The notes under the pieces were generated by a model. It ran no database searches, had not been told where the DNA came from, and saw nothing but the letters and a program-made list of their open reading frames with translations. From an uncultured Clostridia bacterium (lineage in GTDB: Bacteria > Bacillota > Clostridia > TANB77 > CAG-508): a DNA stretch of 64,000 nucleotides. Position numbers and translations under genes: made by a program. Position 1 is the first letter of the stretch, and the number at the start of each line of letters is the position of its first letter. Shown one piece after another: positions 34,403 to 40,009 of this stretch. Location of the stretch: NCBI GenBank assembly GCA_947626875.1, contig CANQTV010000004.1, forward strand, positions 3,506-67,505. The letters run 5' to 3'.

Positions 34403-34857
34403 ATGAAATTCCAAAAATATATTTCAAAAACATTGATTTTTCTTATTTCTTATATTTTGTTGTTTCCTTTTTTTAGTTTTGCTGTTAATGATAGTAGTTA
34501 TATTTGGTCTGTGGCTAATCCTTCTATTGCTACAAGTAGCGAGCCTGTAACACAAAATTCCGATGATAATAGTTTGAATTTAGAAAGTGGTTCTGCTATT
34601 TTGATTGAACAGCGTACAGGTCAAGTATTATATAATCATAATGCACATGAACAATTGCGTCCTGCTTCTGTTACAAAGGTTATGAGCATTTTGCTAATCA
34701 TGGAAGCTATTTCTAATCAGAAAATTGCATTAACTGATAGTGTTCCTTGTTCTGAAAATGCCGCTTCTATGGGTGGTTCTCAAATTTGGCTTGATCCAAG
34801 AGAAACATTAACAGTAGATGAAATGTTAAAAGCAATTTGTGTTAATTCCGCCAATGA
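34403..34857 (+). CDS. dacB: 5' portion of the sporulation-type D-alanyl-D-alanine carboxypeptidase (PBP5*, S11), interrupted after the SAND (SxN) motif
   Basis: Signal peptide, SVTK (SxxK), then ...CVNSAND. The ORF then runs into element DNA and stops 5 codons later. Confidence 0.8.
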
Positions 34858-34916
34858 TTACAATGTACAAAAATGACACAAAAATTTTGATTTTAAAAAA
34901 TTGAAAATTTACTTTT

Positions 34917-36476
34917 TCAATTTTTTATTTTTTTAACTTCTGAAAAGTTGAAATAAATATATACTTCTTTTTTTAATACTTCTATTTTTTTTATCAATTC
35001 TTTAACTTCAAAATTTCTAAAGTCACTTTTTTCTAATTTGCTTATTTTCTTTAATAAGTTTTTCTTTTGACTTAAAGTGTTTAATTTATTATCTTCCATC
35101 TTTTTTTCTGTTTGAGATATTTTTTCTGTAATACTTTTTCTTTGTTCAGTTAGAGCGTTATATCTATTTTTATATTCATCTTCATTTATACTTTCAGATA
35201 GTCTTTGATTATATAATGATGTAATCTTAAAATTTATTTTTCTTAAATTTATTTTTAATATTTCTAAATCAGCAATTTGTCTTTTTGTAATATTCTCTAC
35301 ATACTTTTGATATGCACTGTTTTTTAATTTTGTACTTTTAAAATATTCTTTATATATTTTTATAATAAATTTAATGATTTTGTCTTCTATATGTTTATAA
35401 TTTATTTTACAATTATTTGGGCATAGCTTTGAATTTTCACTATGATTTCTACAATAAATATATACTTTTTCTCTTTCTTTTCTAAAAATAAGTTTTTTGC
35501 CACAACTTTTACAATAAATAAAGTCTTTAAATAGATAATTTGTTTCCTCATGTTTTCGTCTTGTCCCATATTTATTTGTATTATGTACATTGTTAAAAGT
35601 TTCTTCTGATATAATAGGTTCATGGGTATTTGGTATCATAATAAATTCATTTCTCTTAACATATATTCTATCTTTTGATTTATAGCTTATGTTTTGAGTT
35701 TTTCCTCTAATACAATGTCCCAGATATACTTTATTACTTAAAATTCTTGTGACAGAACTTTTTCGCCAGATTTCTTTATTTTTTACCTTTTCCAATCCTT
35801 TTATATTTAGATATTCTGCTGGTGTTTTGTAATGGTTCTTATCAAGATATTTAACTATTTGTGGAGTTGTATATCCTTTTTCTTTTAATTCAAAAATTTT
35901 TTTTACTGTTTTACTACTTTCTTTATCAATGATTAACTTTCCTGCATTATTTGGATCTTTTTTATATCCAAATGGTGCCGTATTACATGCATAAAATCCT
36001 TCTTGCATCTTTTTTCTCTTGGTTTTTTTTATAGCTATAGATGTATCTTTACAATATTTTTCATTGAATACTGATTTAATTGGAATAAAATCATTGCTTA
36101 TATTATCATTAAAATTATCAACTTTATCAAAAATAGCTATGTATCTAACACTATGGTCTGGAAAATACTTTTCTATATATGTACCTGTTTCAATATAATT
36201 TCTTCCTAATCTGGCTAAATTTTTTGTGATAACCATATTAACTTTTTTATTCTCTATATCTTTTATCATTATTTTAAAAGCAGGCCTATCAAAATTTGCT
36301 CCAGTATATCCATCATCAACATATTCATTATATAATTTCATATCTGGATGTTTATCAATATATTCTTTTATTATTTTCCTCTGGTTTGTTATACTTTCAC
36401 TTTCAATATTATCTCCATCATCTTTACTTAACCTTAAATACATTGCAACATTATAAATAACTTGCTTATTTGACAT
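34917..36476 (-). CDS. Large serine recombinase (resolvase catalytic domain, recombinase domain, zinc ribbon, coiled coil), downstream paralog
   Basis: YLRLSKDDGD...ESITNQ (catalytic Ser), VDDGYTGANFDRP, VITKNLARLGRN, Cys-rich zinc ribbon (CKSCGKKL...C), C-terminal coiled coil. Confidence 0.85.
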   Translation of the reverse strand: MSNKQVIYNVAMYLRLSKDDGDNIESESITNQRKIIKEYIDKHPDMKLYNEYVDDGYTGANFDRPAFKIMIKDIENKKVNMVITKNLARLGRNYIETGTYIEKYFPDHSVRYIAIFDKVDNFNDNISNDFIPIKSVFNEKYCKDTSIAIKKTKRKKMQEGFYACNTAPFGYKKDPNNAGKLIIDKESSKTVKKIFELKEKGYTTPQIVKYLDKNHYKTPAEYLNIKGLEKVKNKEIWRKSSVTRILSNKVYLGHCIRGKTQNISYKSKDRIYVKRNEFIMIPNTHEPIISEETFNNVHNTNKYGTRRKHEETNYLFKDFIYCKSCGKKLIFRKEREKVYIYCRNHSENSKLCPNNCKINYKHIEDKIIKFIIKIYKEYFKSTKLKNSAYQKYVENITKRQIADLEILKINLRKINFKITSLYNQRLSESINEDEYKNRYNALTEQRKSITEKISQTEKKMEDNKLNTLSQKKNLLKKISKLEKSDFRNFEVKELIKKIEVLKKEVYIYFNFSEVKKIKN

Positions 36477-38097
36477 CAGATTTTCTCCCTATACAGTTCA
36501 TTTCATAAAAATTAAAATATATTACTGCATGATTGTTTTTATCAACTTCAATTCGGTTTATTAATTGATTTATTATTTCCTTTGTATATTCTTTATCTTT
36601 AAGAATTTTTTTGATGATTTTTTGCATATTTGTTTTTATTCTGTTATTAATTATGTCTTCTTGAAAGCTGTCTAATTCTTTTCTAGTTTCCTTTAAAACT
36701 TTTTCTATTCTATGTCTTTTACTAATCAGGTTCTCTGAAAATAATTTGAAATCTTGTTCTTCAAGTAATCCACTTAATTTATCATCATATAATATCGTTA
36801 TTTTATTATTTACTCTTTCTAAGTCTTTTTCTAATTTTTCTATCTTTTCTAAAATATTTCCTTTATTTTTTTGTGATTGGAGTATCTTTTTTAAAGCATC
36901 TTCATATTTAAATGCATCTTTTGAATTCATGTATATTTCTAAAACCTCTGCTATTTTAGATATGGCCTTCTTTTCAAAAGCATTATAATTTATGTATCTG
37001 CTATAACATGGTTTATTCGTATATTTTTTTGTTGCTGTGTCACATAAAATATATCTTCTTGTTACATCTCCATATTTATTATGATCTACTTTAGTCCTAA
37101 TAGTTAGCTTATTATTGCAATGAGCACAATATAGTAATCCTTTAAATATAACATCTGTTTCTCTTATTTTTGCATTTTTATGATTTTTTAGCATTTCTTG
37201 GACTATATCCCACTTTTCTTTACTTATAATAGGCGGATGATGATTTTTTATTATGCTGTATTCTTCTTTTGGTAAACTAATTATTTTTTTGCTTTTATAA
37301 CTTATTTTTTTAGTTTTATTTTGAACACAATTTCCAATATATATTTGATTTTCTAATATTCTTCTTATTGTATTGTGATTCCACTTATTGGTTGTATTAG
37401 TTATATTGTTGACAACACAAGTCATTTTCATTTGTACTCCAGGTGTTTCAATATTACTATCTGTTAATATTCTTGCAATTTGATATGTACCATATCCTTT
37501 AATAAATAAATCAAATATCTTTTTAACAATTTCTGCTTGTACCTCATCAATTTCTAAGTTTCCAGATTTACTTACTTTCTTATATCCGAATGGTGCATAA
37601 GAAGTATAATAAAATCCTTCTAATTTTTTTCTATTTTTTGTTTTTTTTATGTTTTTAGATGTTTCTTTTGCATAGTAGTCATTCATTATATTTTTAAATG
37701 CAACTGTGTCACAATTTTTATCTAAAAAAGTATCAACATCATCTAAAATTGCAATATATCTTACTTCTTTTTCTGGGAAAAATGTTTCAATATATCTACC
37801 AGTTTCAATATAATCTCTTCCTAGTCTTGATAAACTTTTTGTAATAACCATATTGACCTTTTTATTTTCTATATCGTTTATCATTCTTTTAAAATTAGGT
37901 CTATTGAAGTTTGTTCCCGTATAACCATCATCAACATACTCATCATATATTTTATAGTTATTTTCCTTTGTATAAGCTTTTAAGATTTTTCTTTGATTTA
38001 CAATACTCTCACTTTCTTCTCTATCTCCATCTTCTTTACTTAATCGAATATAAATTGCAGCTTTGTATTCTTGATTATTTACATTTTTGATGTTCAA
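36466..38097 (-). CDS. Large serine recombinase, upstream paralog. About 65% aa identity to the neighbour in the catalytic domain. It overlaps the neighbour by 11 bp.
   Basis: IYIRLSKEDGD...ESIVNQRK, VDDGYTGTNFNRP, VITKSLSRLGRD, zinc ribbon CAHCNNKL...C. Confidence 0.85.
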   Translation of the reverse strand: MNIKNVNNQEYKAAIYIRLSKEDGDREESESIVNQRKILKAYTKENNYKIYDEYVDDGYTGTNFNRPNFKRMINDIENKKVNMVITKSLSRLGRDYIETGRYIETFFPEKEVRYIAILDDVDTFLDKNCDTVAFKNIMNDYYAKETSKNIKKTKNRKKLEGFYYTSYAPFGYKKVSKSGNLEIDEVQAEIVKKIFDLFIKGYGTYQIARILTDSNIETPGVQMKMTCVVNNITNTTNKWNHNTIRRILENQIYIGNCVQNKTKKISYKSKKIISLPKEEYSIIKNHHPPIISKEKWDIVQEMLKNHKNAKIRETDVIFKGLLYCAHCNNKLTIRTKVDHNKYGDVTRRYILCDTATKKYTNKPCYSRYINYNAFEKKAISKIAEVLEIYMNSKDAFKYEDALKKILQSQKNKGNILEKIEKLEKDLERVNNKITILYDDKLSGLLEEQDFKLFSENLISKRHRIEKVLKETRKELDSFQEDIINNRIKTNMQKIIKKILKDKEYTKEIINQLINRIEVDKNNHAVIYFNFYEMNCIGRKSDVK

Positions 38098-38103
38098 AAC
38101 AGC

Positions 38104-39117: not shown

Positions 39118-39130
39118 TAAATACCATAAA

Positions 39131-39162
39131 AGAAGTTGCTAATTTATTAGTAACTTCTTTTT
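39131..39162. terminator. Terminator hairpin AAAGAAGTTGCTAAtttattAGTAACTTCTTT followed by a T-run
   Basis: Read directly, after the cargo gene. Confidence 0.6.
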
Positions 39163-39218
39163 TTATTAAAAAATCATTCACCAAAATACTTTTTACTTGT
39201 GTATATATTGTACATTAT

Positions 39219-40009
39219 ATGACTGTGTTGTTGCCATGAGTGAATTTATTGCAGGTTCTGAAGAAGCTTTTGTTCAGATGATGAATGATAAAGCAAAAGA
39301 ACTTGGTATGAAAGATACTACTTTTAAAAATTGTCATGGTTTAGATGAAGATGGTCATTTAACTTCTAGTTATGATATTGCCTTGATGTCTCGTGAATTA
39401 TTAAATAAGTATCCGGAAATAACGAATTATACAACTATTTGGACAGATACCTTGCGTGATGGTAAATCACAACTTTCTAATACAAATAAGTTGATTAGAA
39501 CATATAAAGGTGCAACTGGATTGAAAACTGGTTCTACTTCTCTTGCTTTGTATAATTTATCTGCTAGTGCAACTCGTGATGATTTGTCCCTTATTGCAGT
39601 GATTATGAAAGCTCCTTCTACAAAAGTTAGATTTAGTGAAGCACAAAAATTATTAGATTATGGTTTTAGCAAATTTGCTTTTAAAAGTTTTGGAAATAAA
39701 GGTGATTTAATAAAAACAATTGATGTAACAAAAGGTGTTACTTCTCATGTTGATGTTGTTTTAGAAAATAATAGTGGTGCATTGATAGAAAAAGGAAAAG
39801 ATACTCAGGTTTCACAAACAATTTCATTACCAGATTCTTTTCCTGCTAAAATTAGTAGTGGACAAAAATTAGGTGAAGCTACTTTTACATTAGATGGTAA
39901 GGTTCTTGCTACTGTTAATTTAATAGCAAAAAATGATGTTGATAAATTGAATTTATTTACTATGTCAAAACATGTAATTTACAGTTGGGTTGATTTGTTA
40001 AGAAGTTAA
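39219..40009 (+). CDS. dacB: 3' portion of the interrupted D-Ala-D-Ala carboxypeptidase
   Basis: VVAMSEFIAGSEEAFVQMMNDKAKELGMKDTTFKNCHGL, KTGST (KTG motif), C-terminal domain. Confidence 0.8.

Follow-up and report, generated by a model that had tools for sequence, protein, structure and literature searches.

An integrative element with paired serine recombinases splits a dacB-like gene at a recurrent site in uncultured gut Clostridia

A D-Ala-D-Ala carboxypeptidase gene of the sporulation type, resembling dacB, lies in two pieces in a 64,000-nucleotide stretch of DNA from an uncultured Clostridia bacterium (contig CANQTV010000004.1; the whole stretch is referred to here as the window), and the insert between the pieces carries two large serine recombinases (LSRs). 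The locus raises the question of what the insert is, whether it can leave the gene again and, if so, in which cell. Here, we conclude with very high confidence that the insert is a non-phage integrative element, which entered by recombination of its attachment site attP with a chromosomal attB at the Asn-Asp codons (AAT-GA) of the SxN motif, that the reversal of this reaction, attL with attR, would restore a gene of 413 amino acids, and that the element belongs to a family with paired recombinases that occupies one site. Of the possible modes of action, excision specific to the mother cell appears, from sequence and analogy, to be the likeliest, with odds close to even; we lean slightly towards the whole statement, in which the structural part and mother-cell excision are taken together.

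The gene encodes the Peptidase_S11 and PBP5_C architecture of Bacillus DacB (PBP5*). Its 5' part (34403-34857, plus strand) consists of a signal peptide and the SxxK region up to the codons of S-A-N-D, and its 3' part (39219-40009, plus strand) runs from the D of SAND through the KTG motif and PBP5_C to the stop codon. Both were delimited by Pfam and by colinearity with an uninterrupted contig, L001, at positions 1-722 and 719-1993, respectively. The 5' frame departs from the family alignment after ...CVNSAND, continues into the element and stops at 34876, while the listing of open reading frames (ORFs) and direct reading place the restart of the 3' frame, DCVVAMSEF..., at 39219 and its end at 40009. 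A duplicated ATGA is located at both bounds, at 34854-34857 and at 39219-39222. The insert (34858-39218) measures 4,361 bp between these cores and 4,365 bp from core to core, which refines the 4.36 kb given in a preliminary description of this DNA. That description had placed the break of the S11 frame after SAND and its resumption beyond the insert, and the Pfam profiles agree: the N fragment (34403-34873) covers positions 8-107 of Peptidase_S11, and the C fragment (39221-40006) covers positions 107-238 and PBP5_C. One domain has therefore been cut in two; the break falls at profile position 107, inside the SxN motif that lies between SxxK and KTG. When the two pieces were joined in silico at the shared ATGA, the gene was restored in frame, as had been anticipated, with an open frame of 413 residues reading ...CVNSANDCVVAMSEF....

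The same gene is found without the insert. Contig L001 (ENA ERZ27060014, 1,993 bp), from a sister strain at 96.5% nucleotide identity, has it uninterrupted: positions 1-722 align to 34136-34857 of the window and positions 719-1993 to 39219-40502, at 96-97% identity, and the 4-nt overlap of the two alignments is ATGA. The intact protein of this contig (P0001) is 99% identical to the reconstituted dacB-like protein. A search for the empty site in relatives had been proposed, and it also yielded a second empty-site contig, L258, and a related species at 85% amino acid identity (L259) with an intact gene at the syntenic place, between a phospholipase-C-like gene and a CwlJ/SleB-type hydrolase gene. 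In L259, a ParE/Phd toxin-antitoxin pair (9315-9975) lies between the intact dacB and the gene in the gerQ position, another small insertion at the same locus. Filled sites come from samples ERZ27249252, ERZ27249462, ERR10663700 and ERR10663701, and empty sites from ERZ27060014 and ERZ27249433; in none of these six samples with the locus were both found together. Given the metagenomic source, an assembly error or chimera joining unrelated contigs inside dacB has to be considered. However, the filled locus is unchanged in independent assemblies from at least four samples and two pipelines, and it is therefore not an assembly artefact; the same junctions recur in about 30 other species and have the dyad symmetry of recombinase sites. 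We give this explanation practically no credence.

The junctions themselves have the form of serine-recombinase sites. The site attL (34830-34885) is composed of a dacB half-site, the ATGA core at 34854-34857 and the element arm TTACAATGTACAAAAATGACAC, and its crossover dinucleotide is probably the GA at 34856-34857. The site attR (39190-39250) is composed of the element arm GTGTATATATTGTACATTAT, the core at 39219-39222 and the other dacB half-site. The imperfect inverted repeats previously noticed at the ends are present as a 23-nt pair (I24), 34859-34881 and 39197-39219, which is 78% complementary. Repeats of such length are unremarkable in this AT-rich window, in which 765 inverted pairs were listed; these two count because they are located exactly at the element ends, which the empty site fixed independently. 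In attP rebuilt from both arms, the best dyad matches at 18 of 25 positions and is centred on the GA of the shared ATGA, as expected for the crossover dinucleotide of a serine recombinase. A GA-centred dyad is likewise found in relatives, and the half-site motif GTGTC..ATTGTAC also occurs at their junctions. Excision is predicted to produce the rejoined attB junction ...AATTCCGCCAATGACTGTGTTGTTGCC... and the circle junction attP ...TTGTACATTATATGATTACAATGTACAA....

The insert has a G+C content of 23.5%, compared with 28% for the window, and contains two overlapping LSR genes, a conserved ORF of 50 amino acids upstream of them and a gene for a secreted NlpC/P60-like protein. The gene nearest the element end, recB (34917-36476, minus strand), encodes 519 amino acids, and its stop codon lies 60 nt from the attL core. 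The second, recA (36466-38097, minus strand), encodes 543 amino acids, and its 3' end overlaps the start of recB by 11 nt. In both products the Resolvase, Recombinase and Zn_ribbon_recom domains exceed the Pfam threshold, in line with the two large serine recombinases first described; both also match PHROG integrase families (PHROG 95 for recB), share the catalytic YxRLSK and show 41% identity along the full length of the two proteins. NCBIfam gives only distant matches to XisF, CcrB and CcrC, all far below threshold. Ratios of non-synonymous to synonymous substitution (dN/dS) against relatives are 0.10-0.12 for recA and 0.13-0.18 for recB, so both recombinases are maintained by selection. The best sigma-70-like match of the region, GTGACA-16-TATAAT (11/12), is located within the recA coding sequence (37712-37685, minus strand), and it might give recB some independent transcription.

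The small ORF, o50 (38107-38259, minus strand), ends 9 nt before recA and is found upstream of recA in relatives at 38-80% identity. It has no family match among the Pfam, NCBIfam and PHROGs profiles and no homology to known recombination directionality factors (RDFs), as is usual for RDFs. By analogy with GirX and CD1234 (PMC5595907, PMC5025042), o50 is a candidate RDF. No phage genes were found in the insert, the PHROGs matches of which are limited to integrase and invertase families, and IMG/VR has no close relatives, the best full-length ones being 35-42% identical; on these two grounds a phage or prophage origin is ruled out.

How widely such elements occur was examined by scanning one genome per GTDB species with a recA alignment and then locating recA, recB, o50 and dacB by tblastn, metagenome loci being treated likewise. 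With a single exception, every locus that has a recA identity of 53% or more and reaches past recB shows a dacB fragment directly after recB, broken at residue ~152; there are about 31 such loci, with recA identities of 53-100%. These loci come from gut metagenome-assembled genomes (MAGs) of Clostridia from human, rabbit, chicken, goat, sheep and mouse. About 20 of them adjoin the N-terminal part of dacB, antiparallel to the recombinases as in the window, and about 11 adjoin the C-terminal part, in parallel orientation; all dacB junctions of the family read ...AAT GA|.... The recombinase pair, with both genes intact and overlapping and with the catalytic Ser motif, is present in all members. 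The presence of two recombinases, at first regarded as unusual, is in fact a conserved hallmark of this family and of a sister family in cwlD described below. Loci with recA identities of 42% or less belong to other recombinase families. In gut metagenomes, recA relatives form more than 100 clusters at 67-88% identity, some on dozens of contigs. Occurrence of the same element at unrelated, non-sporulation loci would have spoken against the preliminary description, and it was essentially not seen; about 31 related loci lie in dacB at the same codon, and one more distant relative, L035 (recA 57%, recB 43%), lies elsewhere, its pair adjoining a C-terminal fragment of a Gate-domain membrane protein and not dacB. 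The Gate (nucleoside-recognition) match of L035 (6181-6640) is weak, and duplicated arm-like repeats precede the junction; this gene may be a third target. Two overlapping, co-conserved recombinases and a small upstream ORF define a widespread family in uncultured gut Clostridia, nearly all members of which are at one site.

Where both ends are available, the elements measure 4.4 kb (window), 6.2 kb, ~7 kb (two loci), 11.4 kb and 13 kb, and one relative, of the L003/L004 type, exceeds 19 kb according to a search with its cargo protein and 10-kb flanks. The window copy is the smallest of the family, and it lacks a second attP-like site and an internal spacer that many relatives have; it could thus be a stranded remnant, decayed and no longer excisable, which would leave dacB permanently inactive in this strain. 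Against such decay, recA, recB and o50 are intact, as are the two att arms and the two halves of dacB, and the element is unchanged in the four or more samples mentioned above. Moreover, dacB has a dN/dS of 0.04-0.08, and the value of 0.04 against the intact copy of the sister strain indicates strong purifying selection. We regard a stranded remnant as improbable. In the family as a whole, the dacB halves are open and of full length at nearly all interrupted loci. Those that depart from this are Clostridium sp. CAG:440, L034, which may have a C-terminal frameshift, and L036, the C part of which is apparently truncated (an open frame of 235 amino acids where ~262 are expected).

A second spore-cortex gene is interrupted in a similar manner. 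At 11 species-representative loci, a tandem recombinase pair with 34-38% identity to recA is directly followed by the C-terminal ~180 amino acids of a cwlD gene, which match positions 13-189 of 189 of the NCBIfam model spore_cwlD (TIGR02883) with 200-208 bits. In all 11 (L058 at ~13100-13700, L059, L061, L062, L063, L065, L069, L072, L079, L082 and L086) the break is at one fixed place beside the DPGHGG motif, and Clostridium sp. CAG:440 contributes one of these loci, on a scaffold other than that of its dacB locus. The elements in cwlD likewise have a small upstream ORF that is conserved, and the pair is preceded by a TGnTATAAT-type promoter. Two different genes of the spore cortex are therefore split by elements with paired recombinases in this clade.

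The dacB family is mobile. One recombinase protein, P0134, and its cargo are found unchanged beside dacB genes of clearly different sequence and species, in both orientations (L003-L006), which implies recent horizontal transfer. Furthermore, a cargo of more than 17 kb (99% nucleotide identity) carries either the dacB-type pair or a different pair of 520 and 507 amino acids (L089 compared with L091/L092/L095/L096, shared positions 1-17085), and the swap point is located exactly upstream of the small ORF and the pair. The shared 17-kb cargo includes radical-SAM, LysR, Sigma70_r4/HTH_16 and ABC genes. Many antiparallel relatives have, between the recB stop and the used arm, an intact palindrome, here called site S, for example GTCTAAATTGTACAGTCTAT-GA-TTGTGATGTACAATTTAGAC; it is followed by ~130 bp and then by the arm joined to dacB (L003/L006-L011, L016, L021, L023, L031 and L034; in L003 at 11185-11235). 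The two halves of S resemble the two arms of the used site, and S is inverted relative to attL/attR. In L004 and L005, which are parallel insertions of the same element, the left half of S is joined to the 3' part of dacB, and S is therefore a functional second attP, inverted relative to the first. Either attP-like site may be usable for integration, or recombination of S with attR may invert the element. In some members the dinucleotide at the centre of S is GA, in others AA or TT, which indicates that part of the family has an S in decay. S is missing from the window element and from L017, and L019 has the S-type site only.

These properties are also those of an ordinary site-specific mobile element, for which the SxN sequence of dacB would be a conserved landing site; such an element would knock out a dispensable carboxypeptidase and be excised only occasionally, for transfer, unlinked to sporulation. 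This explanation is favoured by the occurrence of one recombinase protein, together with over 17 kb of identical cargo, in different species and both orientations, and by the exchange of the recombinase module on an otherwise 99% identical backbone.

By its gene content the host is a spore-former: the window contains genes for SpoIID, a sporulation-type sigma factor, SpoIVA, a SpoVB-like protein, GerA/GerB/GerC and a CwlJ/SleB-type hydrolase. The last of these confirms half of a cwlJ-gerQ pair reported downstream of the split gene; the 91-residue 'gerQ' has no family match. Recombination of attP with attB inserted the element at AAT-GA of the dacB-like SxN motif, and recombination of attL with attR across the GA dinucleotide would remove it exactly, restoring the gene of 413 amino acids. 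In the mechanism that we propose, the interrupted gene would be a mother-cell gene of the sigma-E type, o50-recA-recB in the reduced window copy would form one operon behind a sigma-E-like promoter, and o50 would act as the directionality factor. The pair probably works jointly, in the manner of CcrA and CcrB, with neither recombinase a passenger. Excision in the terminally differentiating mother cell would allow dacB to work on the spore cortex, and the forespore would retain the element, as with skin and gin. This developmental reading is plausible; the indirect evidence for it consists of promoter motifs that resemble those of sigma-E, gene halves that are intact and the analogy with systems already known.

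The sigma-E consensus, an ATA-type -35 and a CATA-type -10, is common to Bacillus and C. difficile (PMC3789822). A sigma-E/K-type promoter had been suggested for the recombinase operon, and upstream of o50 there is a promoter-like motif (38280-38307, minus strand), GAATAAA-N13-CATAATTA, with a sigma-E-like -35 and a CATA-type -10. In 12 family members, GAATAAA-N13-(TA)CATAnTnATT forms the best-conserved intergenic columns before o50, and the spoVB gene of the host has a like site, TCATATT-N13-CATAAATT. No sigma-70-like site is present upstream of the o50 operon on the minus strand of 38260-38493. In most relatives the small ORF and recA are ~90 bp further apart, and this extra stretch contains a hairpin and a TATAAT; it has been lost from the window copy, all three genes of which would therefore depend on the upstream motif. 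Upstream of dacB itself (34330-34402, plus strand), a mother-cell-type -10, CATATATT, assigned by consensus, is located at ~34370-34377, with a TATAAT further downstream. Most relatives across the clade have a conserved CATATAT -10 element, ACATATAT(T/A), in front of dacB, and three dacB orthologues have GAATATT-N14-CATATATA, which is close to the sigma-E consensus. We consider this promoter evidence for sigma-E control of dacB and of o50 to be suggestive only.

Several observations weigh against developmental excision. The o50 motif, which fits the -35 and the spacing, fits only the CATA part of the -10, matching 4/8 positions of the B. subtilis consensus CATACAHT; its assignment to sigma-E is weak. 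The sigma-E-like pattern is not enriched in the window (9 found, 7.3 in shuffles), so a single match carries little weight and only conservation across relatives does. The dacB of the window has a poor -35, and a TATAAT also lies upstream of the gene. In the cwlD family the sigma-E-like motif is absent before the small ORF, where GTAATAW-N14-TAATAT is found instead. Horizontal movement of the family requires activity outside the dying mother cell. In Clostridium sp. CAG:440 (L006, L011; 11340-12600) the interrupted dacB is decayed, its N part being frameshifted with no C part nearby, which shows that insertion can end in gene loss; a neighbouring VanW gene of this locus is broken too. The name dacB is itself provisional, as no NCBIfam equivalog match separates dacB from dacF or dacA, the best being a generic DacD/DacA match of ~190 bits against cut-offs above 600. 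In Bacillus the operon is dacB-spmA-spmB, and the ORFs of the window include no spmAB genes downstream of the dacB-like gene. Finally, direct signs of excision were not found: the empty-site contigs belong to a different strain (96.5% identity) in other samples, and the predicted circle junction (attP, TTGTACATTATATGATTACAATGTACA) has no match among JGI metagenome contigs, a result that is uninformative because those data may not contain this species.

Of these points, the decayed CAG:440 locus and the weak sigma-E evidence speak for a mere landing site, as does the TATAAT-containing spacer before recA in most relatives, which suggests constitutive expression. However, both gene halves are open in almost all of the ~30 interrupted species, and the window copy has neither the internal spacer nor a sigma-70-like site upstream of the operon. 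Moreover, both sister families target cortex genes of the mother-cell line, dacB and cwlD. Targets of this kind are the pattern of all experimentally studied sporulation intervening elements, and this counts against an explanation by landing site alone. On balance, we consider an ordinary mobile element unconnected with sporulation to be a doubtful but serious alternative to mother-cell excision.

To our knowledge, known sporulation intervening elements come nearly all from cultured Bacillus or Clostridium, and all rely on one recombinase. Reported interruption targets are sigK, spoVFB, spoVR, spsM, gerE and yabG (PMC4191935, PMC5595907, PMC10747680). Neither dacB nor cwlD was found as a target in the searchable literature, whose coverage is incomplete, which accords with the preliminary description, in which dacB does not figure as a known target; Peptidase_S11 is absent from the text and supplements of a genome-wide survey of gene-disrupting integrative elements (PMC7192596). 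Removal in the mother cell by an LSR together with a small RDF under sporulation control has precedents in skinCd and gin (PMC5025042, PMC5595907). The nearest precedent overall is gin, in gerE of Bacillus cereus ATCC 10987 (PMC5595907). Like the window element, gin is small and non-phage and has att sites in which imperfect inverted repeats flank a short common core; it lies inside a mother-cell sporulation gene, which the dacB-like gene of the window may be too. Several LSRs are present in gin, among them the tandem pair girAB, comparable to the tandem pair of the window, and its directionality factor, GirX, is a tiny motif-less ORF product of 42 amino acids, the window counterpart of which, o50, is a candidate only. 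However, gin needs only GirC and GirX, girAB being dispensable and silent, whereas the pair in the window is the sole recombinase set and both its members are under purifying selection. The targets (gerE and dacB) and the hosts (Bacillus cereus and uncultured gut Clostridia) also differ, and excision of the window element is predicted only.

In skinCd, within sigK of Clostridioides difficile (PMC5025042), a small acidic or neutral RDF is under a sigma-E promoter and a separate sigma-A-type promoter drives the recombinase. Such a layout with two promoters is seen in most relatives of the window element, whereas the window copy, with an upstream promoter-like motif only, is more like spoIVCA of the B. 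subtilis skin. The skin elements differ in being prophage-derived, in having a single recombinase and in targeting the regulator sigK. For the obligatory pair, the nearest precedent is ccrAB of the staphylococcal SCCmec, a non-phage cassette with two adjacent co-transcribed LSRs at one fixed chromosomal site; SCCmec elements are composite, commonly with variable cargo, as in the window family. However, SCC enters the 3' end of rlmH (orfX) without inactivating it and has no sporulation link, whereas the target in the window is the middle of a DD-carboxypeptidase gene, which is inactivated. Membership of the CcrAB family is ruled out by NCBIfam scores (84-99 bits for CcrB against a cut-off of 900, and 44 for CcrA against 700) and by the different target. 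Of the preliminary description, the structural reading holds, a site-specific serine-recombinase element in a sporulation-type DD-carboxypeptidase gene that precise deletion restores; its alternative, a ccrAB-like mobile element that has simply inactivated the gene, retains some probability, although the recombinases are not CcrA/CcrB orthologues. A further parallel is the fdxN element of Anabaena heterocysts, terminally differentiated cells in which an LSR, XisF, performs developmental excision. The XisF model gives some of the best NCBIfam matches (86-91 bits), but these scores are far below the family cut-off of 375, and the phylum, the cell type and the accessory proteins XisH/XisI differ.

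The sole cargo gene of the window element, o207 (38494-39117, plus strand), is absent from the other family members examined. It encodes a 207-residue protein with a signal peptide and a divergent NlpC/P60-like domain, probably a secreted peptidoglycan peptidase. Its Pfam match to NLPC_P60 is weak (E = 0.013). An exhaustive search gave 243 homologues; in one of them, P0324, the region matching o207 passes the NLPC_P60 threshold, and others combine the domain with glucosaminidase, M23 or amidase domains. An AlphaFold model made without an alignment had a confidence (pLDDT) of 51.6 and is unusable. A probable peptidoglycan hydrolase is thus carried by an element that interrupts a peptidoglycan carboxypeptidase gene. 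A terminator-like hairpin with a T run (39128-39171, plus strand) is located 3' of o207.

Elsewhere in the window, the SpoIID gene, the sporulation-type sigma factor gene with an ORF of 150 codons upstream and the SpoIVA gene are located at 3463-7424 and 14139-15617. The sigma-factor neighbourhood resembles the final part of a spoIIA-type operon, and no dacF gene adjoins it. The host, which has a small genome, is rich in sporulation genes. A RelA/SpoT homologue (42884-45080, minus strand) is present as two ORFs with a 26-nt overlap, one of 285 amino acids (HD) and one of 454 (RelA_SpoT, TGS and ACT). It is called likewise in an independent assembly (L002), and it may be a frameshift, a real split or a programmed shift.

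Taken further, and only as a tentative proposal, the two paired-recombinase families could be removable interruptions of dacB, which controls cross-linking, and of cwlD, which acts in muramic-lactam formation, in a large clade of uncultured gut Clostridia with small genomes. A two-recombinase complex with a tiny directionality factor would excise them in the mother cell, and in many members a second, inverted attP-like site would allow entry in either orientation. If true, programmed DNA rearrangement in the mother cell would extend to cortex synthesis, a heteromeric developmental excisionase made of two LSRs would be shown, and such rearrangements would be suggested to be common in the human gut microbiota. 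The analysis adds dacB and, through the sister family, cwlD as recurrent targets, extends the phenomenon widely into abundant uncultured gut Clostridia of humans and animals, and presents a conserved two-recombinase module. It is of clear interest to specialists in sporulation and mobile elements and contains no new principle. Natural LSR pairs with known attB/attP and a candidate directionality factor may also interest genome engineers. If excision is developmental, the structure of the spore cortex in these organisms would depend on a DNA rearrangement, and the annotation of dacB or cwlD as 'fragmented' or 'missing' by MAG pipelines would give too low an estimate of the sporulation capacity of gut genomes.

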